Assembly: GCF_004361065.1 (NCBI RefSeq)
Contig: NZ_SELT01000002.1
Location: 177,714-241,713 of the forward strand
Length of the DNA: 64,000 nucleotides
Source of the DNA: Cognatilysobacter terrigena
GTDB lineage: Bacteria > Pseudomonadota > Gammaproteobacteria > Xanthomonadales > Xanthomonadaceae
Reading direction: 5' to 3'
The notes beneath the pieces are model-generated. The model saw only the letters and a list, made by a program, of their open reading frames with translations, did not search any database and was not told the origin of the DNA. The position numbers and the translations under genes are program-made. This document shows, one piece after another, positions 25,599-41,787 of this stretch (position 1 is the first letter of the stretch; each line of letters starts with the position of its first letter).

Positions 25599-28256
25599 AT
25601 GACGAATTGGTCGGCGCTTCGTATCGAGGGCACATGGCTGCGCAGCCGCCTCGCACGACGCATCTTCCTCATGTTCTGCGCGATGGCGTTCGTGCCCGCC
25701 GCGCTCGTGTTCTGGCTCACGTGGCGACAGGCCGATCTCACGGTCCGTACCGCCGAACAACGCGACCTGCGTGCAGAGACGCGATTCGTCGCGTTCACCC
25801 TGCTCAGCCGACTGCAAAGCGCCGAAGCCCTGTTGACGCGCATCGCCGCAGCCGGCGGCGTGCCGGATTCGAACGATGCGGACGTTTTCGACGCCGTTGT
25901 TCGTCGAACGCTTGCCAACGGCGTGGACACGTCGCGACTGTCGCGTCTGCACGTGTCAACGGTCCCGGGCGCGCAGATCGGTCGAGCTGTCTTGCTCGTC
26001 GCACGGCCGCAGCCCGACGGATCGACGGTGATCTACGCCGGCACGTTGTCGCCGCGCTACCTATGGCGGGCGGACGAGGATGTCGTCGAAGGCACCCGCA
26101 TCTGTATTCGTTCCAGCGTGCAGGCGCTCGGCTGCGGCGGTGAGGTCACGTCGGGCGCACGCACGATTCGGACGTCGTGGGACCTCGACCTGAAGACCGA
26201 ATACGGCGCGCCCGTGTGGCGTTTCGACGCCGAGCGCGAGTCGGGCGCGGCGCCCGCGTTGCGCGTGCACTGGTTCGCGCTGCTGGCCGCCGGCGTGCTG
26301 CTGATGGCGATGCTGATGAGCCTGGTGCAGATCCGTCGCACGCTGGTTCCGCTGGAAGCATTGATCGATCGCATCCGCGCGTTCTCCGGCTCGCGACGCG
26401 CCGTGCAGCGGAACTCGAACTCTGACGAGCTCGCGACGCTGTCGCACACCTTCGACGAGATGCAGCAGCGGATCGGCGGGCAGCTTGCGCGCCTGCACGG
26501 CTTGTCGGCGGTGGATGGCGAGATCGTGTCGCGCCAACCGCTCAGCGCCATCCTCGAGAGCGTTGCCGAGCAACTGCGTGCGTTGCCCGGCGTGCTCGAG
26601 GCCGCGGTCATCGTCGAGGTATCTGCAAGCGGGCCGCGCGACGTGTATCCGGCAAGCAACTCCGCGCACGAGCGGCACAAGGTGCTGCAGGTCATCGATT
26701 CGGTGCGCGTCGAGCGCGATGGCGATCCGTGGCAGCGCGTCGTCACGCCAGACGAGCATGACGGAGCGGGCAGCGTCTGGTATCGCCTCTCCCTCGCCGC
26801 GTCCGACGACCATCGCGCCTGGGCGGTCGTGGCGCTGGATACACGAGCAGAGCGCGATCCCGAAACGCTCGACGCCGCACGTCAGCTCGCCGACCGCGTC
26901 GCCATCGCGCTTGCACTCGACGCGCGCGAGCGTCGTCTCGTGCACCAGTCGCGCCACGATGCACTCACCGGCCTGCCGAATCGGCTGGCGATCATCGAAG
27001 AACTCGAAGCCGCGATCGCAACGTCGTCGCGGCCGTTCGCGGTCGTCTTCATGGATCTGGATCGCTTCAAGTCGGTCAACGACGGGCTCGGCCATGCGCT
27101 GGGCGACGCGCTGCTCGCTGAAATCGCGGCGCGACTTGCCAGCACGCTGTCGGCGGACGACGTCGTCGCACGCCTCGGCGGTGATGAGTTCGTGCTGCTC
27201 CTGCGCGATGTCGCAGGCATGGACGACATCGACGCCGTGCGCGCACGCATCGACACGGCGTTCGGACTGCCGGTGACGCTCGGCGACCACGTCATGGCGA
27301 TCCGCTACAGCGCGGGCGTCGCGTTCCATCCCGTCGATGGCGACGATGCCCACGATCTGCTGCGCAAGGCGGACGTGGCGATGTATCGCGCCAAGCAGGA
27401 GGGCGGCGGGCGCTTCGCGGCGTATTCGGCGGGCATGAACGAGGCGGCGCGCGAGGAGGTCGAACTGGTGGCGGCGCTGCGTGTCGCGCTGTCGGACGAG
27501 GCGCTGGATGTGCACTACCAGCCCCGCATCGATCCGCACACCCGCCAATGGCAGGGCATGGAAGCGCTGGCGCGGTGGCACGATCCGCAGCGCGGCTGGA
27601 TCCCGCCGTCGAAATTCGTCCCGCTCGCAGAGCGGCACGGGCTGATCGACGCGCTGGGCGCGCTGGTGCTTCGGAAGACGTGCGCGCAGATCGCCGCATG
27701 GCGTGCGCTCGGCTTCGCGCCGGGGCGCGTCGCGATCAACGTGTCGAGCGAACAGTTGCGTGCCGGGACGCTCGTGGACGACATCGGTCGCGTCCTCCTC
27801 GCCAGCGGCGCGGAGTGGTCGGACCTCGAAATCGAGATCACCGAGTCGCTGCTGATCGCCGATGCCGAGACGAGCTCGCGACAGTTGCAGGCGCTGCGGG
27901 ATCTCGGTGTGCATGTCGCGATCGATGACTTCGGCACCGGCTACAGCTCGCTCGCCTATCTCGCGCGATTGCCGCTGGATACCATCAAGATCGATCGCGC
28001 GTTCGTGGTCGCACTCGACGAGCCCGGAACGGCGTCGGTGGTGCGTTCGATCCTTGCGCTCGCCACGGCGCTGGGCAAGCGCGTCGTCACGGAGGGCGTG
28101 GAAACCGAATCGCAGCTGCAGGTCCTGCAATCGTGGGGCTGCGACGTGTTCCAGGGCTATCTGTTCTACCGCCCGATGCCGGCTGCGGACGTCGGCACGT
28201 TGCTGGCAGCTGCATCGGCGGGCGCAGTGGGCAGCGAGAAGTCGTTGGCGCCGTAG
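25599..28256 (+). CDS. Membrane sensor GGDEF-EAL protein (c-di-GMP cyclase/phosphodiesterase)
   Basis: Two TM helices flank a periplasmic domain; HAMP-like linker. GGDEF domain with GGDEF motif (LGGDEFVLLL). EAL domain with EALARW, ...EITES..., DDFGTGYSSL. Confidence 0.9.
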   Translation: MTNWSALRIEGTWLRSRLARRIFLMFCAMAFVPAALVFWLTWRQADLTVRTAEQRDLRAETRFVAFTLLSRLQSAEALLTRIAAAGGVPDSNDADVFDAVVRRTLANGVDTSRLSRLHVSTVPGAQIGRAVLLVARPQPDGSTVIYAGTLSPRYLWRADEDVVEGTRICIRSSVQALGCGGEVTSGARTIRTSWDLDLKTEYGAPVWRFDAERESGAAPALRVHWFALLAAGVLLMAMLMSLVQIRRTLVPLEALIDRIRAFSGSRRAVQRNSNSDELATLSHTFDEMQQRIGGQLARLHGLSAVDGEIVSRQPLSAILESVAEQLRALPGVLEAAVIVEVSASGPRDVYPASNSAHERHKVLQVIDSVRVERDGDPWQRVVTPDEHDGAGSVWYRLSLAASDDHRAWAVVALDTRAERDPETLDAARQLADRVAIALALDARERRLVHQSRHDALTGLPNRLAIIEELEAAIATSSRPFAVVFMDLDRFKSVNDGLGHALGDALLAEIAARLASTLSADDVVARLGGDEFVLLLRDVAGMDDIDAVRARIDTAFGLPVTLGDHVMAIRYSAGVAFHPVDGDDAHDLLRKADVAMYRAKQEGGGRFAAYSAGMNEAAREEVELVAALRVALSDEALDVHYQPRIDPHTRQWQGMEALARWHDPQRGWIPPSKFVPLAERHGLIDALGALVLRKTCAQIAAWRALGFAPGRVAINVSSEQLRAGTLVDDIGRVLLASGAEWSDLEIEITESLLIADAETSSRQLQALRDLGVHVAIDDFGTGYSSLAYLARLPLDTIKIDRAFVVALDEPGTASVVRSILALATALGKRVVTEGVETESQLQVLQSWGCDVFQGYLFYRPMPAADVGTLLAAASAGAVGSEKSLAP

Positions 28257-28787: not shown

Positions 28788-28914
28788 CGGTCGGCGATGA
28801 TCGAACCCGCTGGGCGCTAAGGCACTGCGGCAGCCCAGCCCCATACTGCCGCTCGTCGGAAACGTCACCACAGCTGCTAGTCCGGGATTTCATGTAAGCG
28901 TACAGTCGCCTTCC

Positions 28915-29553
28915 ATGAAAGGCGATCGCCCCCGCAGCTCGACGGACTACGTCCGGGAATTCCGCAAGCGGATGCGGGAATCCGGCCTGGTGAAGCGCGA
29001 GGTCTGGATCCGCCCCGAGCGGGCCCCCGAGCTGACGGCGATCGAAAAGCAGCTGCGCCAGCCGCCCGGTACGGCGACGGCGCTCGACGAAGAGCGATCG
29101 GCTCGGCCGGGCTGGACCGTACACGCGCTCGCCGTCGCGCTCGCAGCGACCCGGCCCGTGCTTACGGGCCGCGTCACCATCGAACTCATCGAGGGTGCGG
29201 AGCCCAGTCTCCACCTCGTCATGCACGACTACGGCGACCTGCCGGTTTTCGTTGCGATCGGTGGCGAGCAGATCATCGTGCAGGTGCTGATGTGGCCCGT
29301 GGACGACGTCGTCGACACGGCAGCGTTCGACATGCACGTGCTTCGGACACACAAGCTGCTGCCACTCAGCACGATGGGCATCGAGCCGATCGGTGGTGTC
29401 ATGAGCTACATCATGTTCGGCTCGCTCGACACCCATTCGAGCCTCGCCAACGTCCTGTTCGAAATCGAAACGCTCGCCGAGAACGTGCTGAGCGCCGCGG
29501 AGTCGTACGCGCCGTTCCTGCGCCCCGAACTTCTCGACGAGGCGGCCGCATGA
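28915..29553 (+). CDS. DUF2170/YjfI-like protein with N-terminal extension
   Basis: 212 aa; C-terminal two-thirds (...VFVAIGGEQIIVQVLMWPVDDVVDTAAFDMHVLRTHKLLPLSTMGIEPIGG...YIMFGSLDTHSSLANVLFEIETLAENV) resembles the YjfI family, which precedes PspA-like yjfJ in enterobacteria. ATGA overlap with the next gene. Confidence 0.5.
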   Translation: MKGDRPRSSTDYVREFRKRMRESGLVKREVWIRPERAPELTAIEKQLRQPPGTATALDEERSARPGWTVHALAVALAATRPVLTGRVTIELIEGAEPSLHLVMHDYGDLPVFVAIGGEQIIVQVLMWPVDDVVDTAAFDMHVLRTHKLLPLSTMGIEPIGGVMSYIMFGSLDTHSSLANVLFEIETLAENVLSAAESYAPFLRPELLDEAAA

Positions 29554-30287
29554 ACCCTTTCAGTCGCCTCATGGGACGGGTCCGCGAGCAGCTCGTCGAA
29601 CTCGGCGAAAGCCTCGCCGGCAGCCAGGCCGAGCGGTCGCTGGACGATCGCATCCGCCGTGCCGACGATCAGTTGCGCGAATGGCGGGCCTCGCTGGCCG
29701 AGTTCCGCGCGAAGCACATGGCCGCGAAGGAACGCCACGACGCCACGATCGCCATCGTGCTGCAACGCGAAGCGCAGACGGCCGTCGCTCTGCAAGCCGG
29801 GCAGGACGCCCTGGCCACCGAAGTCGCTGCCGAGATCGATCGATTGGAGCAGGCACGCGACGACGAGGCGGAACTGATGGGTCATCTCGACGCCTGCATC
29901 GCACAGATGACGCCCCTCGTGGAGCAGGGCGAACGCCAGCTGCGGCGCTTGCGACACCAGCTCGACGTCCTGCGCGCTGCGCACGCCGTGCAGCGTGCGC
30001 AGGAAGCCGTCGCCGGCCGCGGTGATGGTGATGCGGTTCGCCCGCAGACCGCACTCGATTCGTTGGCTCGCGTTCGTCGACAGCACGAAGCGGCGAGCGC
30101 ACCCGAGTGCGCCGCGGTCGACACGTCGTCGACCGGGGCAGATACCGATCCGCTCGACGCAAAGCTTCAGGACGCGGGTGTCGATCGCCGTGCGCGCATC
30201 GACGCGATCCTCGCCCGCATTCGCGCGTCGGCCGAGCCCGCACCGACCCGGCCGGCCGGACGTGCCACCCGCAAGGCATCGTCATGA
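29550..30287 (+). CDS. PspA/IM30 family protein (YjfJ-like)
   Basis: 245 aa, long coiled-coil. MNPFSRLMGRVREQLVELGESLAGSQ... is a typical PspA/Vipp1 N-terminal amphipathic helix. ATGA overlaps on both sides. Confidence 0.75.
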   Translation: MNPFSRLMGRVREQLVELGESLAGSQAERSLDDRIRRADDQLREWRASLAEFRAKHMAAKERHDATIAIVLQREAQTAVALQAGQDALATEVAAEIDRLEQARDDEAELMGHLDACIAQMTPLVEQGERQLRRLRHQLDVLRAAHAVQRAQEAVAGRGDGDAVRPQTALDSLARVRRQHEAASAPECAAVDTSSTGADTDPLDAKLQDAGVDRRARIDAILARIRASAEPAPTRPAGRATRKASS

Positions 30288-30949
30288 CCGATTTCCTTAC
30301 TACCGCATTGACGTTCCCGACCGTCGTCTACAGCGTGTTGCTGGCGGTCTGTCTGATCTATTGGCTGCTCGCCGCGACCGGCCTGATGGACCACCACGCG
30401 CCCGACGCGCTCCTGCATGGGCATCTGCACGGCGGCGACCTGCACGGGCACGGCGATCACCATGCAGAAGCCAGCGACCTTGCGGCGTTGCTCGGCCGGC
30501 TGGGCCTCGCCGGCGTGCCGGTCATGGTCATCGCGACGGTGCTCAGCTTCTTCGGCTGGATGTGCGCGTACTACGCGCAACTGCTCGTGCTCGATCACCT
30601 GCACACGACGTTGCGCGTCGCGATCGGCATCGCGGTCGATGTCGCTGCCCTCGTGCCGGGTCTCATTGCGACGTCGATCGCCCTCCGCCCGGTCAGCCGC
30701 TGGATCCTGAAGCTGCGTCCGCCCGTGGAGCCCAGCCTGCTCGGGCGCGTCGCGGTCGTCAGTACGCCGGTGGTCGACGACCGCTACGGCCAGGCACGCG
30801 TCGACGACGGCGGCGCCGGATTGATCCTGCAAGTACGTACCAACGAACCCGGCCGGTACAAGCGCGGCGACCGGGTCGTGCTCATCGAGTTCCTCGATGC
30901 GCAACATGCCTACCGCGTCGTCCCGGAACATCAGTTCCACAGTCTGTAA
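30284..30949 (+). CDS. YqiJ/NfeD-like membrane protein (DUF1449; OB-fold partner of flotillin)
   Basis: 221 aa with an N-terminal TM helix, a His-rich loop and further TM helices. C-terminal soluble beta-rich domain (GRVAVVSTPVVDDRYGQARVDDGGAGLILQVRT...GDRVVLIEF) typical of NfeD/YqiJ proteins encoded upstream of flotillins. Confidence 0.65.
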   Translation: MTDFLTTALTFPTVVYSVLLAVCLIYWLLAATGLMDHHAPDALLHGHLHGGDLHGHGDHHAEASDLAALLGRLGLAGVPVMVIATVLSFFGWMCAYYAQLLVLDHLHTTLRVAIGIAVDVAALVPGLIATSIALRPVSRWILKLRPPVEPSLLGRVAVVSTPVVDDRYGQARVDDGGAGLILQVRTNEPGRYKRGDRVVLIEFLDAQHAYRVVPEHQFHSL

Positions 30950-30977
30950 GCGTCACACCTCAAGGAGAGGGTCGCAA

Positions 30978-33023
30978 ATGAGTATGTCCCTGATCATGCC
31001 GTTCATCATCGGCACCGGCGCGCTGCTGGTGGTGTTGCTCGGCCTTTTCGGCCTGTTCAAGGCTTTTTACGTCAAGGTCGAGCAGGGCACCGCCTTGATC
31101 GTCAACGACCTGAGCAGCACGCCCAAGGTGCGGTTCACGGGCGGCCTGATCATTCCGGTGCTGTACAAGGCCGAGTACATGCAGATCTCGCTCATCACCC
31201 TGCAGGTGGATCGCAAGGGCAAGGAAGGCTTGATCTGCAAGGACAACATGCGCGCCGATATCTCCGTTGCGTTCTACCTCCGCGTGAACGAGACGCAGCA
31301 GGACGTGCTGCGCGTGGCCAAGGCCATCGGCGCGCATCGCGCCTCCGACAAGGTCGCCGTGGACGAGCTGTTCAACGCCAAGTTCTCCGAGGCGCTGAAG
31401 ACCGTCGGCAAGCGCTTCGACTTCACCGAACTGTTCGACAAGCGCGAAGAGTTTCGGGACGAGATCGTTAAGGTCATCGGCAGCGACCTCAACGGTTATG
31501 CGCTCGAGGACGTCGCCATCGACTACCTCGAGCAGACGCCGAAGCACCTGCTCGATCCCAACAACATCCTCGACGCCGAGGGCATCAAGAAGATCACGGA
31601 GCTGACGTCGGCGCAGAACGTGCGCACGAATGATCTCGAACAGAATGCGACGCTCGAGATCCAGAAGCGCAACACCAGCGCCCGGGAAGCGGCGCTGGCG
31701 ATGGAGAAGCAAGTCGCTGAGGCGGAAGCGCGCCAGGCGCGTGAGGTTGCCGAGGTGCGGGCCCGTGAAGAGGCGGCTGCGAAGAAGGCGCAGGAAGAAC
31801 AGCGCCTGATCGCGGAGCAGGCGCGCCTGGAAACGGAAGAGAAGCTGCAGATTCGTGACCAGAACAAGCTGCGCGAGATCGAAGTTGCCGAGCAGAACCG
31901 TCAGCGCGCCGTGGCGATCGAAGCCGAGCGCGTCAACCGCGCGCGTTCGCTCGAGCAGGTGACCACCGAGCGTGAAGTGCAGCTGCAGAACGTCGAGCGT
32001 GACAAGGCGGTCGAAGCCGGCCGCATGGACGTCGCCAACATCACCCGCGAGCGCATCTCGATCGACAAGACGGTGGCGCAGGAGGAAGAGCGCATCAAGG
32101 ACGTGCGTGCCGTGTCGGAAGCCGAGCGCCAGCGCCAGGCGCGCGTCATCGCTGCCGAGGCGATTGCGCAGGAGGCGCTCGTCCGCACGGTGAAGGAGGC
32201 CGAGGCTGCCGAAGCCGCCTCGAAGCACCGCGCGAACGAGACGACCATCACCGCCGAGTCCGAACTGCAGTCGTCGATCAAGCTGTCGGAAGCCAAGCGC
32301 GTGCTGGCCGAAGGCGTCAAGGCCGAGCGCGCTGCGCCGGGCCTGGCCGAGGCGCAGGTGCGTGAAGCTAGCGCGGCGGCGATCGAGAAGGTCGGTATCG
32401 CGGAAGTGCGCGTGCTCGAGGCAAAGGCCGAAGCGACCTACAAGCAGGGCAATGCCGAAGGTCGCGTGCTGGCCGAGACGCTCGCGGCGAAGGCGCACGG
32501 CGAGGAGAAGATGGGTCTCGCGAAGGCGAAGGCGGTCGAAGCCGTCGGCACGGCCGAAGCCGAAGTGCTTGGCAAGCGCTTCAACGTCGAAGCGGAAGGC
32601 CTGAACAAGCGCTTCGCGGCACTGGACGAGCTCAGCGACAACGCGCGTGCGCACGAAGAGTTCCGCATGGTGTTGGAGAAGAACCTCGAGCAGGCGCTTG
32701 CCGCGATCGAGGCCGGCAAGGACGTCAGCAAGGAAAACGCCGAAGTCATCGCGACGGCGCTGCGTGGGGCGAACATCGACCTTGTGGGCGGCGACGGCGG
32801 GCTGTTCGAAAACTTCTCGAAGGCGCTGTCGCTGGGCAAGGCGATCGAAGGCTTCGCTGCCAAGAGTCCGATCGCGCAGGATCTGCTGGAGCGCTATCTC
32901 GGCGTTGCCAGACCCGCGCCGCGCGAGCGCGTGATCGATGCCGCCGGTGCCGCACCGATTGCAGCCGCGATCGAACGCGCCGCGCATGCTGCCGACGCGG
33001 AACCAGCCAAGCCCGCGGTCTGA
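30978..33023 (+). CDS. Flotillin family protein (SPFH/band-7; YqiK/FloT-like)
   Basis: Ribosome-binding site AAGGAGAGG 7 nt upstream. N-terminal TM helix. SPFH domain (KVEQGTALIVNDLSSTPKVRFTGGLIIPVLYKAEYMQISLITLQVD...). Very long E/A/R/K-rich flotillin coiled-coil. Confidence 0.9.
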   Translation: MSMSLIMPFIIGTGALLVVLLGLFGLFKAFYVKVEQGTALIVNDLSSTPKVRFTGGLIIPVLYKAEYMQISLITLQVDRKGKEGLICKDNMRADISVAFYLRVNETQQDVLRVAKAIGAHRASDKVAVDELFNAKFSEALKTVGKRFDFTELFDKREEFRDEIVKVIGSDLNGYALEDVAIDYLEQTPKHLLDPNNILDAEGIKKITELTSAQNVRTNDLEQNATLEIQKRNTSAREAALAMEKQVAEAEARQAREVAEVRAREEAAAKKAQEEQRLIAEQARLETEEKLQIRDQNKLREIEVAEQNRQRAVAIEAERVNRARSLEQVTTEREVQLQNVERDKAVEAGRMDVANITRERISIDKTVAQEEERIKDVRAVSEAERQRQARVIAAEAIAQEALVRTVKEAEAAEAASKHRANETTITAESELQSSIKLSEAKRVLAEGVKAERAAPGLAEAQVREASAAAIEKVGIAEVRVLEAKAEATYKQGNAEGRVLAETLAAKAHGEEKMGLAKAKAVEAVGTAEAEVLGKRFNVEAEGLNKRFAALDELSDNARAHEEFRMVLEKNLEQALAAIEAGKDVSKENAEVIATALRGANIDLVGGDGGLFENFSKALSLGKAIEGFAAKSPIAQDLLERYLGVARPAPRERVIDAAGAAPIAAAIERAAHAADAEPAKPAV

Positions 33024-33083
33024 CGAAGGAACCGCCGGGCGCCGTGTGGTGCCCGGCCTGCTCACGGAATGGAAGGCTTCTAG

Positions 33084-36000
33084 ATGTCCGAGTCCACGCC
33101 CACGGTCGCGTCCGGCGACACGTCTTCTGCAGTCGATCGCGCCGTCGCCGAGGGCGGTGCGTACGAGGTGCTGCGTCGGCGCCTGACCGAGCAGGGTGGT
33201 CGCCTGCGCGGAATCGCCGACACGCTCAATGCGCAACGCGTCGCCGAGTTCGGCGATAGCCGGCTCGAGGTGATCGGTCGCCTCCGGGTCCGCACCGAGC
33301 ACAACTGCGTAGGGCGCGACATCGTGCCCGTGGGCGGCTTGCTCTTGTTCGGCTACAACGTTTTCATGGGTCTGAAGACGACCACCGGCATCGCGGACGT
33401 CTTCGCCCTGTACCGCCTGGTCGAAACGGCGGACGGCTTCGACGTCGAAACCGTCGATCCGGCGAGCAGCTTCCTCGGTGACGCACAGTTCGAGCGCGAC
33501 TTCGCGGAGCTGTACGCGTATTACAAGAACGCACGTTTGCTGCAGCTCGACGTCACGGGCGGCAAGCTCCTCGCCGCGTTCCAGATCGGCGAGCGCAGCA
33601 CGGATGTGCGCGTCTTCCGTTGGGCGGTTTCGCCGCAGGGCGAAATCACTTACATCGACGCACGGGGCGAGCGCGACCTCATATTGCCGCCTCCGTTCGA
33701 TTTCGAGTGGACGCGCGCGACGCGCGACCTGATGGTCAGCGGTCGGTTTCCGCATCTCAATATTCTCGACACGTTGTTTGTCGAGACGACCGGTGGCGAC
33801 CTCACGATCAAGGTCGAGAACAATACCGAGACCGGTCAGGGCATCTACGCCGAGCCGGTCGACGACATCACGCAGTCGCTCGACGATGCGACGTTCGAGT
33901 TCGCCAAGCTCGGTTCGCTGATCCTGCTCAAAGTACTGCCGTACCGCGAGCACGCGTGGCGCGGCTTCATCTACAACACGCTCACCGGCAAGATCACGCG
34001 CAACGACGCGATCGTGCAGGCCTGTGTGCAGTTGCCCGAGGATCATGGGCTGCTGTTCCCTGGCGGGTACTACCTGCAGAACGGCGAACACAAGGCGTTC
34101 GACGCCCAGATGGACGGCATGCAGTTCCAGCGCGCCATCCGTTCGCCGAACGGCGAAGACGTGCTCTACATGTTCTACGAGCACGAGGCCGGAAAATCGG
34201 CACTGTTCGTCTACAACATGATCCAGCGCAAGCTGCAGAACCCGTTGTTTGGCCACGGTCATGCGGAGTTGCCGGACGGCCGCATGGTGCTGTTCGGCGC
34301 CGAGGGCGATGCGCCCACCCGCGTCCACGCGATGCAGGTCTGGCAGACCCCGTTCGTGTCCGACGAAGTGGCCGCGGCACGTCCGCCGGGGAACAGTTTC
34401 ATGGGCCGCCTGGGTAACGCAGAGCTGGTGCGCGGCATTTCCAACCTGCTGGAGCTCACGCGTGAGATCGAGCGCCCCGACGTGTCGGCGGCCCGCTATC
34501 AGCTCCTGGCCCAACATACGCGGCGGCTGTTCGATGCCCATCACTGGATCGACGACGCCCACTGTTGCGGCGCAGCGACCCTGCTGCGCGAGATTGCTGC
34601 GAGCAGCGAGTCCGTGCTCGACGAGTTCGAGAAGGTCGAGGGCATCCGCCGACAGTCGGAACAGGCGATCGTCCGCGCAGCCTCCGACCACAAGGCGCTG
34701 CTGGCTCGGCTGACACCTGACAGCTGGACGCAGGTTCAGGACTACGTCGACGCCATCAACGACATCACACGGCAGCGTGGTCATTTGCTGACCATTCGGG
34801 ACTACCGCTACATCGACGTTGCCGCGGTCGACGGGATGAACTCGGAACTCGAAGTGGCCCATGCGCGCATTGGCGCTGCGACGGGTACGTTCCTTGCCGG
34901 TGCGGCTGCGCTGGCACCGTTCGCCAAGCGGGTCGACGATCTCGACGCCGCGGCCCAGCAGGCGCAGACCGCGAAGCAGCTCGCCGAGCATCTCGCATCG
35001 CTGAAGACGCTGTCGGCGGATCTCGACATGCTTTCGGCGCTCATGGCCGGGTTGCAGGTGGAGGACGCGACCGAGCGCACACGCGTCGTTGACGCGATCG
35101 CGGGGATTTACGCGCGTCTCAACCAGGCGCGCGCACGCGCTGACCAGCGTCGCAAGTCGCTGGGCTCGGCTGAGGCTGTCGCGCAATTCGCTGCGCAGTT
35201 CGCACTTTTCGGGCAGTCCATTACGAGCGCGCTGGGTCTGGCGACAGATCCCGAGAAGGCCGACGAACAGCTGTCGCGACTCATGGTGCAACTCGAGGAA
35301 CTGGAGAGCCAGTTCGGCGAGCACGAGCAGTTCCTGGGCGACATCCTCACCAAGCGCGAAGAGCTGCTCGAGACATTCCAAGGCCACAAGCAGGCACTAC
35401 TCGACGAGCGCCAGCGCAAGGCACAGGCCGTTCTGGATGCCGCGAACCGAATCCTCGAAGGATTGAGCAAGCGTTGCGAGAAATTCACCACCGCGGACGA
35501 GCTCAATGCCTTCTTCGCGGGCGATCCGCTGATCCTCAAGCTGCGCGAACTGGCGGACCGGCTTCGCGCGCTGAAGGACAGCGTCAAAGCCGACGACGTC
35601 GCGGCACGACTCAAGGCGACGCGCGACCAGGCCGTCCGTGCGCTTCGCGATCGCAGTGACCTCTTCGAGGGCGGCGGGGACATCATCCGGCTCGGCCGTC
35701 ATCGCTTCAGCGTCAACACGCAGCCGCTCGATCTCACGATCCTGCCGCGCGGCGACCACCTCGCGCTGCACCTCACGGGCACCGACTTCATGGAGCCGAT
35801 CGACAGCGCTGAGCTCACTACGTTGCGCGAGTACTGGCAGACGGCGTTGGAATCGGAATCCGCCGAGCTCTATCGCGGCGAGTACCTTGCGGGCGAGCTG
35901 CTGACCGCGGCGGAGCAGGGCGCGGATGGGCTGTCACAGGAGAGCCTGCAGCGGCTCGCCGCCGACCCCGACGCGCTCGCCAAGGCAGTACGTGACTTCG

Positions 36001-38411
36001 CAGCCCCGCGCTATCGGGACGGCTACGAACGCGGCATTCATGATCACGACGCCGCGCGCATCCTGCGCGCGTTCCTCGCCCAACGCGGCGTCGCGGGTGA
36101 ACTCGTGCACGCGCCGGCGGCGCGGGCGCTTGCCGCCCTCTTCCAGGCCACCCATACCGACGACGCGGATGTCCGAGAGTGGCTTGGGCGTGCGAACGGC
36201 GCGAAGGCGATGCAGGTGTTGTTCAATGCGCGAAGCGGTCTGGATGCATTGCTTCGCGACATCAATGGGCGCATCGTCGCTTTCGTCGATGCCGCAGGGC
36301 TTCCGTTCGAGCCGGCCGACGCATCAGATGCAGCACGCTACCTCGTCGACGAACTGACCGCAGGCCAAAACGCGTTCGTCCTGTCGCGCTACGGCCGCGA
36401 ACTCGGCGAGGCGCTGCTCGCGCGTCTTGAGAGCGCAGGCCTCAAGGAGGGATTCGAGCGCACGATCGAGCAGTTCCGCGATCGCCCCGGCGCGCGCTGG
36501 CACCACGCGGTGCACTGGCTCGACGCGCTTTGCGGTGACGCGACGTTCGTCCCGATGCAGCGTTACGTCCCTGAAGCCGCCGCGTGGCTTCTTACGCGCG
36601 ATGTGCTGCCGCGTCGCGACAACGCGACGCCTCTCCTGACCGCCGTCGACGGCCTGCTGGGCGAGCACCCGCGTATCGCGAGCGGAACGCTGCACCTTGC
36701 GATCGACGACCTGCTCGCGCGTCTTCGCGCCCATCGCGAGCGTTTCCTGCCGGGCTATCGTCGGTACCAGGCACTTCGCCAGACCGTCGCGACGCGTGAA
36801 CGAGACGCACTGCGCCTGTCGGAGTTCAAGGCAAGGCCGCTTACGTCGTTCGTCCGCAACAAGCTGATCAACAAGGTCTACCTGCCGCTGATCGGCGACA
36901 ACCTCGCCAAACAGATGGGCACGGTCGGCGAAGGCAAGCGCAGCGATCTCATGGGCCTGCTCATGATGATCTCGCCGCCCGGCTACGGTAAGACGACGCT
37001 GATGGAGTACGTAGCGAATCGTCTCGGCCTGATCTTCATGAAGGTCAACGGGCCCGCGCTCGGCCATGAGGTTCGTTCCGTCGACCCCGCCCAGGCCCCC
37101 GACGCTACGGCGCGCCAAGAGCTGGAAAAGCTCAATCTCGCGCTCGAGATGGGCAACAACGTGATGCTGTACGTCGACGACATCCAGCACACCAGCCCCG
37201 AATTCCTGCAGAAGTTCATTTCACTCTGCGACGGCACGCGCCGCATTGAGGGCGTCTGGAAAGGGCGCAGCAAGACCTACGACATGCGGGGCAAGAAGTT
37301 CTGCGTCGTCATGGCTGGCAATCCGTATACGGAATCCGGTGAGGTCTTCAAGATTCCGGACATGCTCGCCAACCGTGCCGACATCTACAACCTCGGTGAC
37401 GTGCTCGGCGGCATGGAAGACGCCTTCCTGCTCAGCTATATCGAAAACAGCCTGACGTCGAACCCGGTGCTTGCGCCGCTCGCAACGCGCGACATGTCCG
37501 ATCTGTATCTCCTGATCGACAAGGCGATGGGCAAGGACGTTTCGACCAACGGCCTCAGCCATGCCTACAGCGGCGCCGAGATCAGCGAACTCGTCGCGAC
37601 GTTGCAGCGGCTCATCGCAGTGCGCACCGTGGTCTATCGCGTCAACCAGGAATACATCGCGAGCGCTGCGCAGGCCGACAGATACCGGACGGAGCCGCCG
37701 TTCAAGCTGCAGGGCAGTTACCGCAACATGGGTAAGCTGGCCGAGAAGATCTCGCCGGTGATGAACGATGCGGAAGTTCAGCAGCTGATTTCCGATCACT
37801 ACCTGGGCGAGGCGCAGCTGCTCACCCAGGGCGCGGAGGAAAACCTGCTAAAGCTCAAGGAATTGCGTGGTCTGCTGTCGGGGGACGATGCCATCCGCTG
37901 GGCGCAGATCAAGCGCGACTTCCTTCGTAACAAGGCGATGGGAAGCGACGACGCGGACGTCGGCGGTCGCGTTGTCGCCCAGCTCGCGGACATCGCGAGC
38001 GGGCTGCAGGCAATCGAAGGCGCGACAGCACGGCCTGCGGAAACACCCGCGCCGTGGGGCGAACTGCTGCAGTTGTTGCGCGACGCCGTCGAGCGACCGG
38101 CTGGATCCGCGACGGCGACCGAGGCGGCGCGGCCACCCGTAGACGATGTCGTGCGTGAAGCGCTCAAGCGCCTTCCCGACAGCCTGCATGCCGCGATCGT
38201 GCCGCTGCTCGATGCCCTGCGGAGTTCGCAGGATCAGCAGACCCGCGTGAATACGGCGATCATGCAGCTCGCCGAATCGCTGCGGGATGCGTCGCCCACG
38301 CGCCAAGTCCTGGTCGCGCCTGCGAAGACGCGCGGGCCCCATCACCCCACGGCGGAGGAAGCGCCGCTGGATCGCGCCCTCGAGCAGTTCGGCGCATCAC
38401 CCTCGCCGTGA
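33084..38411 (+). CDS. Giant (1775 aa) uncharacterised protein with C-terminal MoxR-like AAA+ P-loop ATPase module
   Basis: Single uninterrupted ORF. Walker A ISPPGYGKTT (~aa 1290). Walker B NVMLYVDDIQH. Sensor-1-like VVMAGNPY. Arg-rich ANRADIYNLGD. No TM segments. Ribosome-binding site GGAAGG. Stop overlaps the next start (GTGA). Confidence 0.8.
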   Translation: MSESTPTVASGDTSSAVDRAVAEGGAYEVLRRRLTEQGGRLRGIADTLNAQRVAEFGDSRLEVIGRLRVRTEHNCVGRDIVPVGGLLLFGYNVFMGLKTTTGIADVFALYRLVETADGFDVETVDPASSFLGDAQFERDFAELYAYYKNARLLQLDVTGGKLLAAFQIGERSTDVRVFRWAVSPQGEITYIDARGERDLILPPPFDFEWTRATRDLMVSGRFPHLNILDTLFVETTGGDLTIKVENNTETGQGIYAEPVDDITQSLDDATFEFAKLGSLILLKVLPYREHAWRGFIYNTLTGKITRNDAIVQACVQLPEDHGLLFPGGYYLQNGEHKAFDAQMDGMQFQRAIRSPNGEDVLYMFYEHEAGKSALFVYNMIQRKLQNPLFGHGHAELPDGRMVLFGAEGDAPTRVHAMQVWQTPFVSDEVAAARPPGNSFMGRLGNAELVRGISNLLELTREIERPDVSAARYQLLAQHTRRLFDAHHWIDDAHCCGAATLLREIAASSESVLDEFEKVEGIRRQSEQAIVRAASDHKALLARLTPDSWTQVQDYVDAINDITRQRGHLLTIRDYRYIDVAAVDGMNSELEVAHARIGAATGTFLAGAAALAPFAKRVDDLDAAAQQAQTAKQLAEHLASLKTLSADLDMLSALMAGLQVEDATERTRVVDAIAGIYARLNQARARADQRRKSLGSAEAVAQFAAQFALFGQSITSALGLATDPEKADEQLSRLMVQLEELESQFGEHEQFLGDILTKREELLETFQGHKQALLDERQRKAQAVLDAANRILEGLSKRCEKFTTADELNAFFAGDPLILKLRELADRLRALKDSVKADDVAARLKATRDQAVRALRDRSDLFEGGGDIIRLGRHRFSVNTQPLDLTILPRGDHLALHLTGTDFMEPIDSAELTTLREYWQTALESESAELYRGEYLAGELLTAAEQGADGLSQESLQRLAADPDALAKAVRDFAAPRYRDGYERGIHDHDAARILRAFLAQRGVAGELVHAPAARALAALFQATHTDDADVREWLGRANGAKAMQVLFNARSGLDALLRDINGRIVAFVDAAGLPFEPADASDAARYLVDELTAGQNAFVLSRYGRELGEALLARLESAGLKEGFERTIEQFRDRPGARWHHAVHWLDALCGDATFVPMQRYVPEAAAWLLTRDVLPRRDNATPLLTAVDGLLGEHPRIASGTLHLAIDDLLARLRAHRERFLPGYRRYQALRQTVATRERDALRLSEFKARPLTSFVRNKLINKVYLPLIGDNLAKQMGTVGEGKRSDLMGLLMMISPPGYGKTTLMEYVANRLGLIFMKVNGPALGHEVRSVDPAQAPDATARQELEKLNLALEMGNNVMLYVDDIQHTSPEFLQKFISLCDGTRRIEGVWKGRSKTYDMRGKKFCVVMAGNPYTESGEVFKIPDMLANRADIYNLGDVLGGMEDAFLLSYIENSLTSNPVLAPLATRDMSDLYLLIDKAMGKDVSTNGLSHAYSGAEISELVATLQRLIAVRTVVYRVNQEYIASAAQADRYRTEPPFKLQGSYRNMGKLAEKISPVMNDAEVQQLISDHYLGEAQLLTQGAEENLLKLKELRGLLSGDDAIRWAQIKRDFLRNKAMGSDDADVGGRVVAQLADIASGLQAIEGATARPAETPAPWGELLQLLRDAVERPAGSATATEAARPPVDDVVREALKRLPDSLHAAIVPLLDALRSSQDQQTRVNTAIMQLAESLRDASPTRQVLVAPAKTRGPHHPTAEEAPLDRALEQFGASPSP

Positions 38412-39103
38412 CCGAACGCTGTCCTGCTGCAGGCGGGCCAAGGATCAGCGACGCGCCGTCCGCGCGCGCGCGGTTGCTGGAGGACGTCGCCGACCTGCTG
38501 GCGCGGCAGCCCGCCACGGATCTTCTCGGTGACCTCCGGCAGTGGCTCGAGGGGTTAGTCCCGCAGCGACGGGGCCTGTCGGCTCTTGCCGATCGCCTAC
38601 TCGCACGAGACCTCGTGCGGGCAGCGCATCCCGACGCGCTGGACGCGCGGCTGCGTGTCATCGACGATCGCTGCGCCGCGCATGCGGCTGCAACGGAGCG
38701 CTTTCTCGCCCACGCGGACAGCGCCATCCGCGATGCGGACCAGCAGCTCGAAATGATCGGGCGGGAGCGCGAGAAGGCGTCAGCGGCGATGGCCGACGAC
38801 GTCGCTGCGGGCCCGGGGGCGCTGCAGCGCCTGGATGCTTTGCACGCATCATGGCTCGCGACGCGCGCGCAGGTCGCACTGGCCCGGTCGACGGCGGAAG
38901 CAGTGCTCGACCAGTACCAGCACATGCGTGACCTGCTCATGCCGCTGTGGCGGCAGCACGGCGCGGCCAGAGCGGCGGCCGAACATGCGCGTGCCGCCCG
39001 GGGCTTGGCAGAGCTGCAAGCCGCGTTCGCCGCTGGCCCCACCAACCTATCGTTGATCGACCCGCACGCACTGGAGAGTCTCGATGACCGCACCCACTCA
39101 TGA
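38408..39103 (+). CDS. Short TelA-like helical protein (TelA-family paralog)
   Basis: GTG start overlapping the giant ORF's stop. C-terminal ...DQYQHMRDLLMPLWRQH parallels the TelA signature ...KFGSVRDITIPAWKRS. 20-nt overlap with the downstream TelA. Confidence 0.45.
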   Translation: MTERCPAAGGPRISDAPSARARLLEDVADLLARQPATDLLGDLRQWLEGLVPQRRGLSALADRLLARDLVRAAHPDALDARLRVIDDRCAAHAAATERFLAHADSAIRDADQQLEMIGREREKASAAMADDVAAGPGALQRLDALHASWLATRAQVALARSTAEAVLDQYQHMRDLLMPLWRQHGAARAAAEHARAARGLAELQAAFAAGPTNLSLIDPHALESLDDRTHS

Positions 39104-40178
39104 TCTCGTTGCTGCCACACCCGCCGCTGGATTGGATGCCGCCACGCTGCGGGCCATGGACCTGCAGCCCGCGGACGCCGAAGCGATCGAGAGCCTGCGC
39201 GCGGCGCTCGCCGCCCAGCCCGTAACGGACCTGCAGGGTTATGGACGAGACGCCTCATTGCGTACGACGCAGTTCTCCAGCCAATTGCTCGATCAGGTTC
39301 GCAACAAGGATCTCGACGATGCAGGCGTCAAGCTCGGTGAGGTCGTCCGAATCGCGCGATCATTGAACCTGCAGAAGTTCGCCGGGCGGTCGAAGGTACC
39401 GGTCATCGGACCGTTGATCGACCGCATGCGCGACGCGAAGGGCGAGCTGGTGCAGAAGTTCAGCAGCACCAACCAGCAGATCGACCAGCTGATGCGCGAC
39501 CTCTCGCGCCAGCAGGACGATCTCGGCAAGCGCGTACGCGACTTCGACCGCATGCACGACATCGTGCTCGAGGAACGCCATCAGCTGGGTGTGCACGTGG
39601 CCGCGGGCAAGCTCCGTCTCGCCGAACTCGACGAAGCGCGTCGTGCACTCGATGGGCTGGAGGATGCGGAGTCGCGGACCCGTCGGTCCGAACTCGAGAT
39701 GGCGATCCGGCTACTCGACAAGCGCGTTGGCGATCTTCAACTCATGCGGCATGCCGCGGAGCAGACGCTGCCGATGATTCGTCTGATTCAGGCGAACTCG
39801 ATGCAGCTTATCGAGAAGTTCGGCTCGGTGCGCGACATCACCATCCCCGCGTGGAAGCGGAGTTTCGCGCTTCAACTGTCACTCAACGAGCAGCAGAACG
39901 CGGTGCAGCTGGCCACCGCCATCGACGACGCCACCAACGAGCTCATGCGGCGCAATGCCGACCTGCTTCGCGAGAACTCCGTAGCGACCGCACGCGCCAA
40001 CCAGCGCGGCGTGATCGACATCGAGACGCTGCAGCACGTGCATGAGCAGCTGATCCAGACGGTCGAGGATGTCCGCCAGATCCATCGGGAAGGTGCCGAA
40101 AAGCGTCACCAGGCCGAGCAGGACCTCGCGCGCATGCGCGACGATGTCCAAAAGCGGCTCGCGGCGCCAAACGTATGA
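39084..40178 (+). CDS. telA: Toxic anion resistance protein TelA (KlaA/TelA family)
   Basis: 364 aa; full-length TelA hallmarks (..LDQVRNKDLDDAGVKLGEVVRIARSL...; TLPMIRLIQANSMQLIEKFGSVRDITIPAWKRSF). Confidence 0.85.
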   Translation: MTAPTHDLVAATPAAGLDAATLRAMDLQPADAEAIESLRAALAAQPVTDLQGYGRDASLRTTQFSSQLLDQVRNKDLDDAGVKLGEVVRIARSLNLQKFAGRSKVPVIGPLIDRMRDAKGELVQKFSSTNQQIDQLMRDLSRQQDDLGKRVRDFDRMHDIVLEERHQLGVHVAAGKLRLAELDEARRALDGLEDAESRTRRSELEMAIRLLDKRVGDLQLMRHAAEQTLPMIRLIQANSMQLIEKFGSVRDITIPAWKRSFALQLSLNEQQNAVQLATAIDDATNELMRRNADLLRENSVATARANQRGVIDIETLQHVHEQLIQTVEDVRQIHREGAEKRHQAEQDLARMRDDVQKRLAAPNV

Positions 40179-40861
40179 TCGCGTTGGACGACCTGGACCG
40201 GCTGCTGCGCGAATCCGCCGCCGACGGACGCCTCGACCACGACGAACGTCTGGAACTGCGCGACATCGGCCAACAGGCGACCGCCGATCAGGTCCGTTTC
40301 CTGCGCAATCGCGCGTTCGATATCGCACGCGAGTCGATGCGGGCTGATGCGACGACGGCGCTCGATGTGCTGCGCTGGTTGGAGCAGGTGGTGAAGACGC
40401 TGGAGGTCGCTGCGATCGGTGCGAGCGCGGCGACGACGGCCTTCTTCTCGCCCGGGGATGCGTGCCTGCGGCAGCTGCAGTCGCTGTGGTCGAATGCCAA
40501 GCGCTCGGCCGATGCGTGCGTGTTCACCATTGCGGACGATCGCATCACGCGCGTCATTCTGGACGCGCATCGCCGCGGCGTAACGGTGCGGATCGTCAGC
40601 GACGACGACAAACGTTTCGACACGGGCAGTGATCTGGACGAGCTAGTTGTGGCCGGAGTTTCGGTGCGCACCGATGCCACGCCGTATCACATGCATCACA
40701 AATTCGCGGTTTTTGATGGCGCGACTGTGGCGAACGGCAGTTTCAACTGGACGCGTAGCGCGAGCTCGAACAACTTCGAGAATCTTGTCGTCAGCAGCGA
40801 TCCGTACCTGGCGCGTGTGTTCGCGGGCCATTTCGAGACGCTCTGGAGTCGCTTCGCGTAA
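40175..40861 (+). CDS. Phospholipase D/Nuc-like HKD domain protein (single HKD motif) with helical N-terminal extension
   Basis: HxKxxxxD...GSxN motif present: MHHKFAVFDGATVANGSFNWT. ATGA overlap with telA. Confidence 0.75.
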   Translation: MIALDDLDRLLRESAADGRLDHDERLELRDIGQQATADQVRFLRNRAFDIARESMRADATTALDVLRWLEQVVKTLEVAAIGASAATTAFFSPGDACLRQLQSLWSNAKRSADACVFTIADDRITRVILDAHRRGVTVRIVSDDDKRFDTGSDLDELVVAGVSVRTDATPYHMHHKFAVFDGATVANGSFNWTRSASSNNFENLVVSSDPYLARVFAGHFETLWSRFA

Positions 40862-41106: not shown

Positions 41107-41349
41107 TCAGCCGATGGCGTGCGTCTGACGGATCTTCGTGATGCGTGCGGCGACTGTCGGGTCGAGCTGCGTTTGCTCGGCCTGCTTGAAAATGCTCTGC
41201 AGAACCCGCTTTTCGTCTTCGTCGTACGTGCCGTCGCGTTCTGCGAGTTCGAGCAGCTTGTCGAGTTCCGCGTGGTCGAGCAGACCATCGTTGGTGAACA
41301 GGGGGATCGAGGCGAGGGCGACGTCGAGATGGCTGCGGGACGATGGCAT
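41107..41349 (-). CDS. Hypothetical small acidic protein, possibly TerB-like
   Basis: 80 aa; LFTNDGLLDHAELDKLLELAERDGTYDEDEKRVLQSIF resembles TerB/DjlA-N-type helical domains. Confidence 0.35.
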   Translation of the reverse strand: MPSSRSHLDVALASIPLFTNDGLLDHAELDKLLELAERDGTYDEDEKRVLQSIFKQAEQTQLDPTVAARITKIRQTHAIG

Positions 41350-41710: not shown

Positions 41711-41787
41711 TGGTGGCTATGGGTGGACTCGAACCACCGACCCCAGCATTATGAGTGCTGTGCTCTAACCGGCTGAGCTACATAGCC
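41711..41787 (-). tRNA. tRNA-Met (anticodon CAT), elongator type
   Basis: Minus-strand sequence GGCTATGTAGCTCAGCCGGTTAGAGCACAGCACTCATAATGCTGGGGTCGGTGGTTCGAGTCCACCCATAGCCACCA folds as a canonical cloverleaf. 7-bp acceptor with G1-C72, encoded CCA. Close to E. coli elongator tRNA-Met. Confidence 0.9.

Follow-up and report, generated by a model that had tools for sequence, protein, structure and literature searches.

The 64,000-nt stretch of Cognatilysobacter terrigena DNA analysed here (the window) carries, at 33084-38411 on the + strand, a gene for a protein that is 100% identical to the database entry 'DNA repair ATPase' of this species, and the locus raises the question of what such an ATPase does right after a flotillin gene. 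Based on profile searches, structure prediction and a comparison of neighbouring genes, the protein was placed in the DUF3686-DUF7902-AAA+ (BacE) family, which is functionally uncharacterised, and its constant companions were found to be a flotillin and a short NfeD-type membrane protein (YqiJ). We give an even chance to the reading that the ATPase serves in the cytosol as a motor for the flotillin/NfeD scaffold, its work being remodelling and not DNA repair. The family, the domain layout and the operon context are already published, and the window protein is a plain orthologue of Pseudomonas aeruginosa BacE, which makes it a good lead and not a discovery. New here are a quantified cross-phylum comparison which shows flotillin/NfeD, in contrast to PspA and TelA, to be the constant partner, a structural comparison that puts the AAA+ module close to MoxR, midasin and dynein, a Xanthomonadales-specific module of TelA and a 231-aa protein (p231), a rhomboid variant of the locus, and the lack of any visible basis for the 'DNA repair' label.

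The ATPase and its family

The G+C content of the window is 67.5%, and in DNA this rich in G+C long spurious open reading frames (ORFs) are common. The + strand frame at 33084-38411 showed a coding pattern, with G+C fractions of 0.70/0.44/0.82 at the three codon positions, and given its ATG start and more than 4,400 homologues (E≤1e-5, 90% clustering), the 1775-aa ORF reported in the preliminary description was confirmed. An antisense ORF of 1475 aa (30960-35387, - strand), which overlaps the flotillin and ATPase genes, gave the mirrored pattern (0.84/0.42/0.69) and was regarded as a high-GC artefact because GC1 exceeds GC3. No transmembrane segment was found in the ATPase, the highest Kyte-Doolittle mean over 19 residues being 1.49; lacking a sufficiently hydrophobic segment, the protein is therefore cytosolic and soluble, as had been proposed.

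Two AlphaFold2 monomer models were built on 108-sequence alignments, one of aa 1-1200 (mean predicted local distance difference test score, pLDDT, 87) and one of aa 1150-1775 (pLDDT 81). The gene and the predicted parts of its product are as follows:

33084-38411, + strand: ATPase gene, ATG start, 1775 aa; DUF3686-DUF7902-AAA+ protein, orthologue of P. aeruginosa BacE (PA3728)
aa 13-56, + strand: long helix in the AlphaFold2 model
33267-34346, + strand: predicted beta-propeller of about seven blades inside DUF3686 (aa 62-421; about 28 strands, pLDDT mostly above 90)
34416-35663, + strand: predicted helical-bundle/coiled-coil arm, which contains DUF7902 (aa 445-860; helices only by DSSP on the model)
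35682-36596, + strand: middle domain, with a small beta unit (aa 867-906) and an all-helical domain (aa 931-1171); pLDDT 85-98
36831-37883, + strand: single AAA+ module (aa ~1250-1600), with Walker A at 1298-1305, Walker B at 1362-1369, a pre-sensor-1 beta-hairpin at ~1387-1400, sensor-1 N1413, Arg finger R1431 and a putative sensor-2 QGSYR at 1543-1547
37884-38408, + strand: helical C-terminal tail, poorly conserved (aa 1601-1775; pLDDT 37-83, few conserved columns)

When the protein was searched against Pfam, aa 41-487 matched DUF3686 (PF12458) over profile positions 2-448 of 448 (E=2.1e-192, 640 bits), a family whose one-line description reads 'ATPase involved in DNA repair', and aa 609-692 (nt 34908-35159) matched DUF7902 (PF25472; E=8e-25). 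The AAA+ region reached 25.7 bits against PF00004 (AAA; cut-off 21.2) and 23.5 bits against AAA_5 (cut-off 22), scores that appear marginal and non-specific. The protein had been described as recognisable at aa ~1270-1440 only, which holds for the unaided eye and, judged by these matches, is false for profile searches. The hidden Markov model (HMM) search thus placed the protein in an uncharacterised family kept beside flotillin, and not in a well-characterised family of unrelated function, the outcome that had been named as speaking against the earlier proposal. Full-length members of the family are 1600-1900 aa long, and when aa 1-600 were used as the query against 1.84 billion cluster representatives, 815 clusters (50% identity) were obtained at E≤1e-3.

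The four AAA+ motifs that had been read by eye were all recovered, namely PPGYGKTT (aa 1298-1305), LYVDDIQH (1362-1369), VMAGNPY (1409-1415) and ANRADIY (1429-1435). In an alignment of 22 diverse members, the window protein included, with identities down to about 33%, Walker A (SPPGYGKTT), N1413, P1414, R1431 and QGSYR 1543-1547 were invariant, and the family-invariant motifs DDIQH, GNPY and NR(A)D were all carried by the window protein. The invariance of Walker A, the Asn of sensor 1, the Arg finger and QGSYR among members of just 29-50% identity indicates a conserved, working nucleotide site. Walker B was Asp-Asp (D1365, D1366; nt 37176-37181) and not Asp-Glu in 22 of 22 members. Moreover, a GIHDxDA motif at aa 984-990 (nt 36033-36053) was invariant at G984, H986, D987 and D989, and it is possibly a metal or catalytic site within the all-helical middle domain.

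According to the models, the N-terminus is beta-rich (strands at aa 62-421), the central region is helical (aa 445-860) and a single AAA+ module lies at the C-terminus (aa 1150-1775 model), all three as foreseen from the sequence. A Foldseek search with the aa 1-1200 model returned generic propellers only (IFT-A, Nup, prolyl oligopeptidase and PON1; E=1e-6 to 1e-4), and the other Pfam matches of the helical arm were weak (ATG17, ALIX V-domain and spectrin models; isolated sub-region, E up to 10). Neither a Pfam match at E up to 10 nor a sequence match in the PDB was obtained for the middle domain (aa 860-1250), and the C-terminal 336 aa gave noise only against Pfam at E up to 10. In PDB sequence searches with the single sequence and with the 22-member profile, only the Walker A region was matched (Cdc48/p97, Rix7, NVL, RuvB and proteasomal AAA ATPases), leaving the other ~1,400 residues unmatched.

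The solved structures nearest to the AAA+ module were the MoxR ATPases CbbQ and NorQ, followed by midasin and dynein. The motif GNPYTESGEVFKIPDMLANRAD conforms, by eye, to the MoxR/dynein pattern, and the model contains a beta-hairpin between helix 3 and the sensor-1 strand (~aa 1387-1400). The predicted pre-sensor-1 hairpin and a GNP...G...IP...NR motif after sensor 1 are shared with MoxR ATPases (CbbQ, NorQ, RavA), and RavA has arms as well, by which it docks to a large protein cage. The window ATPase differs from these proteins in being ~5x larger, in having DD and not DE in Walker B, and in an AAA_5 score just 1.5 bits over the cut-off. The helix-2 insert beta-hairpin was absent from the predicted structure, in which a loop and a short helix connect beta2 and alpha2 (model residues 174-191); the MoxR model AAA_3 of Pfam gave no match; and no VWA-domain gene was found in the window operon or in the gene lists of P. 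aeruginosa, Hymenobacter, Deinococcus and plasmid pQBR103. The term 'MoxR-like' is thus retained as a structural description, for which the nearest structures and the pre-sensor-1 hairpin speak, but membership of the MoxR family is unsupported because of the missing AAA_3 match, VWA partner and helix-2 hairpin, the DD Walker B and the size.

Other ATPase groups were compared in the same manner. For the classical clade (Vps4, Cdc48/p97, FtsH), the sequence matches obtained (Cdc48, Rix7, NVL and proteasomal AAA ATPases) span only ~40-70 residues around Walker A; in the loop after beta2, the place of pore loop 1 in unfoldases, no aromatic residue was found in the ATPase (GPALGHEVRSVDPAQAP); and the MIT-domain models of Pfam gave no match, the N-terminus being a predicted propeller. 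RuvB models of NCBIfam scored 15-18 bits against cut-offs of 282-299, and in place of the SMC/Rad50/SbcC type of head, which is split by a coiled coil, the protein has one contiguous C-terminal AAA+ module.

Genes conserved beside the ATPase

The ATPase gene is part of an eight-gene operon (28915-40861), which is translationally coupled by ATGA/GTGA overlaps. The other seven genes are the following:

28915-29553, + strand: YjfI/DUF2170 protein (CesT/Tir-like), BacA equivalent, first gene; Pfam DUF2170 E=2e-45, ATGA overlap with the next gene
29550-30287, + strand: PspA/IM30 protein (YjfJ-type), BacB equivalent; Pfam PspA_IM30 E=9.5e-21 at aa 2-226, ATGA overlaps at both ends
30284-30949, + strand: short NfeD membrane protein of the YqiJ/YuaF type, BacC equivalent; Pfam YqiJ_N E=2e-3
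30978-33023, + strand: YqiK-type flotillin, BacD/PaFlo3 equivalent, with an N-terminal membrane anchor, an SPFH domain and an EA-rich coiled coil
38408-39103, + strand: p231, a 231-aa Ala/Arg-rich helical protein; GTGA overlap with the ATPase gene
39084-40178, + strand: TelA-family protein; Pfam TelA (PF05816) E=6e-76, 20-nt overlap with the p231 gene
40175-40861, + strand: single-HKD hydrolase of the phospholipase D (PLD) superfamily, BacF equivalent, last gene; Pfam PLDc_2 E=1.2e-26, ATGA overlap

The flotillin was not recognised by Pfam or by a PDB sequence search, and its identity was resolved by direct comparison with Escherichia coli YqiK (28% identity over 414 aa, E=7e-34; NCBIfam FloT E=1e-4). 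Its gene had been given a start at 30897; the start is at 30978, where the ribosome-binding site AAGGAGAG precedes the ATG. The short NfeD protein matched E. coli YqiJ by BLASTP at E=1e-4. The GTGA overlap of the ATPase gene, which had been attributed to a TelA-like gene, is with p231, a protein without a TelA match, and TelA is encoded one gene further on.

To establish which neighbours are constant, one genome per species was scanned, and at least 584 loci were confirmed, of which the best 80 were used for neighbour counts; 71 of these had at least 5 kb of upstream DNA and 71 had downstream DNA, and the window operon proteins were searched against all ORFs. The loci came from Gamma-, Beta- and Zetaproteobacteria, Myxococcota, Actinomycetota, a Clostridia metagenome-assembled genome and Thermoanaerobaculia, at least six phyla being represented. 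YqiJ was found upstream of the ATPase on the same strand in 70/71 loci, and flotillin in 69/71 (E=1e-150 to 1e-288). PspA was upstream in 37 and YjfI in 36 of the 71, and PspA was absent from all examples of Actinomycetota, Myxococcota, Stenotrophomonas and Luteimonas, where YqiJ-flotillin-ATPase is retained. Downstream, PLD was present in 16/71 loci and TelA in 14/71, all of them Xanthomonadales; p231 homologues were detected, among the best 80 of the at least 584 loci, only in Xanthomonadales and only where TelA is encoded too.

It follows that NfeD/YqiJ, flotillin and the ATPase make up the conserved unit, to which single lineages have added PspA, TelA, PLD or rhomboid. The earlier argument had been drawn from the place of the gene between flotillin and TelA: the link to flotillin proved very strong and cross-phylum, but TelA is not a conserved partner. 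Nor is PspA, which had been named beside flotillin as a possible target, the core partner; flotillin/NfeD takes this place because no more than 37 of the 71 loci have PspA.

The additions vary with the lineage. A rhomboid protease gene (Pfam E=1.7e-18) begins at or within ~15 nt of the ATPase stop codon, with several overlaps, in nine loci, which include Pseudomonas, Providencia and Limnobaculum. Rhomboid genes were recorded in L007 (15241-15807), L013, L017, L019, L024, L027, L057, L061, L065 and L085 (457-1011). In Comamonas, the ATPase gene is followed by a gene for an MscK-like mechanosensitive channel of ~1150 aa (L028 15515-19003; L029 15575-19021). A Hymenobacter (Bacteroidota) record shows Tir-chaperone, PspA, DUF1449 and a 722-aa protein, followed by an ATPase annotated 'DNA repair ATPase', with 37.5% identity by tblastn over 96% of aa 1-600. 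The same core order was found in an independently annotated Deinococcus record, and on the P. fluorescens megaplasmid pQBR103 the order is PspA, rhomboid, YjfK/L/M/C, a YqiJ-like gene, an SPFH protein and then the ATPase. In three loci, unrelated or mobile genes are inserted between flotillin and ATPase: two PD-(D/E)XK transposase-like genes (L036 8015-9915); a hydrolase, an NYN-domain gene and a nucleotidyltransferase (L022 6539-9577); and OmpA, a surface-repeat protein with a DUF11 domain and CopD (L080 4038-9880). A conserved C-terminal 'handle' on the flotillin was considered and ruled out by the even conservation along the protein and the variable last 40 residues.

In P. aeruginosa, a 1746-aa 'DNA repair ATPase' (P0398; PA3728/PA14_16190, BacE) has the same Pfam architecture (DUF3686/DUF7902/AAA) and is 65% identical to the window ATPase over the full length (1731 aa aligned); on this match the window ATPase is the orthologue of BacE. 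The genes of this locus are, in order, those for DUF2170, PspA, proteins of 213 and 688 aa, the ATPase of 1746 aa, PLDc_2, YaeQ, RecJ and LasB. Published primers for the bacD/bacE junction map to it, and the stated amplicon of 557 bp was reproduced. The reverse primer of this pair (21 nt; L082 8202-8221) shows one substitution and one extra base relative to the sequence analysed, and 557 bp still fits; the stated amplicon sizes of two other bac primer pairs do not fit the analysed P. aeruginosa strain. The bacABCDEF genes (the 'biofilm-associated cluster') have the same order as the window operon, DUF2170-PspA-YqiJ-flotillin-ATPase-PLD, and lack p231 and TelA, which the window operon has between ATPase and PLD; the window operon thus holds all six bac-type genes in order, plus these two.

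Operons of the bacABCDEF type were described by comparative genomics by Ravi et al. (mSystems 2024; PMC11237479), with parts that include CesT/Tir-PspA, a YqiJ/YuaF protein and a PLD hydrolase in some Proteobacteria. Their type and domain description are those of the window operon, with Hymenobacter as the Bacteroidota version with an ATPase homologue, and a general chaperone-like or ESCRT-like role was proposed with its target unnamed (PMC11237479). In the text of that paper TelA has no occurrence, and p231 and DNA repair are likewise unmentioned. In Proteobacteria, the three-gene core sits within this PspA-type membrane-stress operon. PA3729-PA3732 were defined by Macé et al. (2008; PMC2587700), who reported defects in biofilm, swarming, rhamnolipid production and virulence for a mutant of PA3731 (PspA-like), and induction of PA3731 by osmotic shock. 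Co-transcription of PA14_16190 and PA14_16200 (bacE, bacF) with bacA-D was demonstrated by reverse transcription PCR by Wallart et al. (2024; PMC10948618), who also found BacB-F up 6-13-fold in a bacA mutant. Moreover, phage infection induces PA3728-PA3732 (PMC12041424), and PA3728, entered as an 'ATPase', is reported among the genes that mutate recurrently in isolates from cystic fibrosis (PMC8190622). BacE itself is not the subject of any of the bac-cluster papers cited, which deal with co-transcription, co-regulation and phenotypes of neighbour genes.

What the ATPase may act on

YqiK/FloT-type flotillins have their SPFH domain and coiled coil on the cytoplasmic side of the N-terminal anchor, where a soluble ATPase could reach them. 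The flotillin scaffold was chosen as the candidate target because of the gene linkage together with two properties of SPFH proteins: they form closed domes on membranes (PMC11260169, PMC13000311 and PMC12624060), and HflK/C works with an AAA+ machine, housing the AAA+ protease FtsH (PMC13220708). In the proposed mechanism, the soluble ATPase would oligomerise through its single MoxR/dynein-like AAA+ module, probably into a hexameric ring, and each subunit would carry its propeller on a helical arm of ~400 residues, so placed that the propeller could dock on the cytoplasmic flotillin/NfeD dome or on proteins held there. ATP turnover in the ring would then be turned into mechanical work, by which the flotillin scaffold may be assembled, opened or dismantled. 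This work would regulate membrane microdomains in envelope or osmotic stress, possibly also in phage stress, and lineage-specific membrane-active genes (PLD, rhomboid protease, TelA with p231, MscK-like channel) would tune the output; the rhomboid, the MscK-like channel, PLD and TelA are plausibly all membrane-directed. It is from these lines that we infer the target and direction of the work and, with them, the role of a remodelling ATPase.

A more specific version is that BacE-type proteins are the first dedicated ATP-driven openers or dismantlers of flotillin (SPFH) domes, as Vps4 is to ESCRT-III; we regard it as possible, though doubtful. Here a ring with six propeller-tipped helical arms would grip the cytoplasmic cage and free a membrane patch on demand in envelope stress. 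No dedicated bacterial flotillin-remodelling ATPase was found in literature searches. SPFH dome structures are known, and a conserved soluble AAA+ motor whose gene directly follows that of flotillin in at least six phyla is a concrete candidate for an opener, loader or dismantler; if true, the reading would give SPFH biology a disassembly factor. P. aeruginosa offers a tractable system, with a BacE orthologue whose neighbours affect biofilm, swarming and virulence.

Several points weigh against a motor that works on flotillin. Gene linkage shows a shared process and not flotillin as the substrate, and the AlphaFold models represent monomers. With an invariantly Asp-Asp Walker B, ATP turnover could be slow or switch-like and not motor-like, and with no aromatic pore residue in GPALGHEVRSVDPAQAP, threading of flotillin is not indicated. 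The flotillin operon of E. coli works without such an ATPase, as, to our knowledge, does that of Bacillus subtilis. Finally, deletion of paFlo3 (bacD; BacD is PaFlo3) caused marginal phenotypes only (PMC13086221).

The precedents also differ from the window ATPase. In HflK/C-FtsH, an SPFH membrane scaffold is likewise functionally coupled to an AAA+ machine (PMC13220708), but FtsH-type partners are membrane-anchored, classical-clade proteases inside the dome, whereas the window ATPase is soluble, protease-free and of another AAA+ clade. The logic of Vps4/ESCRT-III, a dedicated ATPase encoded beside a membrane polymer, is similar, and the gene of PspA, a member of the ESCRT-III superfamily, lies in the same operon; Vps4 belongs to a different AAA+ clade, however, and the window ATPase has no Pfam match to MIT. 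A further precedent for SPFH with AAA+ is the mitochondrial SLP2-PARL-YME1L complex.

Among the alternatives, the one that survives best is a client-directed chaperone or extractase, which would have as its substrates membrane proteins gathered within the flotillin microdomain and not flotillin itself; damaged or unfolded proteins, for example, might be handed to the rhomboid protease or freed from the scaffold, in the way in which MoxR proteins mature or repair client complexes. That the closest structures are the MoxR-type maturation factors CbbQ and NorQ is consistent with this, as are the rhomboid gene at the ATPase stop codon in 9 loci, and again in the pQBR103 operon, the confinement of unfolded proteins by bacterial flotillin domains that is reported in PMC11222466, and the quality-control precedent of HflK/C-FtsH (PMC13220708). 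The ATPase, however, has no protease domain, no VWA-type adaptor gene was found in the loci examined, rhomboid is present in a minority of loci, and the universally linked genes, in the best 80 of at least 584 loci, are those of flotillin and NfeD only. We consider such a role rather unlikely.

A remodeller of PspA, which would disassemble or recycle PspA/YjfJ polymers as Vps4 does ESCRT-III, appears improbable. PspA and YjfI open the operon in the window and are present in 37 and 36 of the 71 loci, the Hymenobacter and pQBR103 operons carry PspA, and links of AAA+ proteins to PspA are discussed as ESCRT-like by Ravi et al. (PMC11237479). About half of the loci, however, lack PspA and yet keep YqiJ-flotillin-ATPase, so that in this family linkage to PspA is facultative whereas that to flotillin is near-universal; moreover, no MIT domain was matched in Pfam, and the likeness to Cdc48, Rix7, NVL and proteasomal AAA ATPases is limited to the Walker A region.

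A function on nucleic acids, either as a true 'DNA repair ATPase' or in an anti-phage system with the single-HKD PLD as nuclease, is very improbable: the NCBI and Pfam names, RuvB and MCM among the top Foldseek matches, the resemblance of the PLD protein to the nuclease NucT and to DISARM DrmC, and the induction of PA3728-PA3732 by phage (PMC12041424) speak for it, but a literature search found no mention of DUF3686 or PF12458 and no pairing of 'DNA repair ATPase' with flotillin, Pfam and NCBIfam searches detected no DNA-binding, helicase or nuclease domain in the ATPase, PADLOC gave a weak LmuB match only (E=8e-4, coiled-coil region aa 589-878) and no defence-system assignment, PLD is present in just 16 of the 71 loci, no homologue occurs among 50,697 phage records, and the constant neighbours are membrane proteins. 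The 'DNA repair ATPase' label is carried in thousands of genomes; no support for it was found, and the evidence points to the membrane.

Other features of the locus

YjfI matched the NCBIfam model 'biofilm formation regulator BacA' at E=1e-77 with 260 bits, which is under the 300-bit cut-off. For p231, no match was found in Pfam, NCBIfam or PADLOC. It shares with TelA a local motif RDxxxPxW followed by K/R; a paralogous relationship to TelA was rejected as unproven (BLASTP E=0.007, hhalign probability 14%). The PLD enzyme matched NCBIfam NucT at E=1e-14, under the cut-off, and it fits the nuclease NucT and DISARM DrmC models better than any lipid-enzyme model; its N-terminal 95 residues show a TerB-like helical motif by eye.

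Upstream of yjfI, a GG-N10-GC match (AGGCACTGCGGCAGC) was found at 28820. This candidate sigma-54 motif is indistinguishable from chance because the pattern is too loose, with a background of 0.54 per 330 nt and matches at 10/33 loci, and scans for sigma-70 promoters and terminators did no better than shuffles.

Just upstream of the operon, a GGDEF-EAL (cyclic di-GMP) gene is located at 25599-28256 on the + strand. Deinococcus and eight other loci likewise have GGDEF or GGDEF/EAL genes no more than 10 kb away (L084 2541-4022; L018 15332-16570; and seven others), though the background frequency of such genes is high. Downstream, a ~1-kb gap after the PLD gene holds a small ORF (41107-41349, - strand) whose TerB-like motif is weak (Pfam TerB E=0.03), and beside it a tRNA-Met gene with a terminator-like hairpin is located at 41711-41787 on the - strand.

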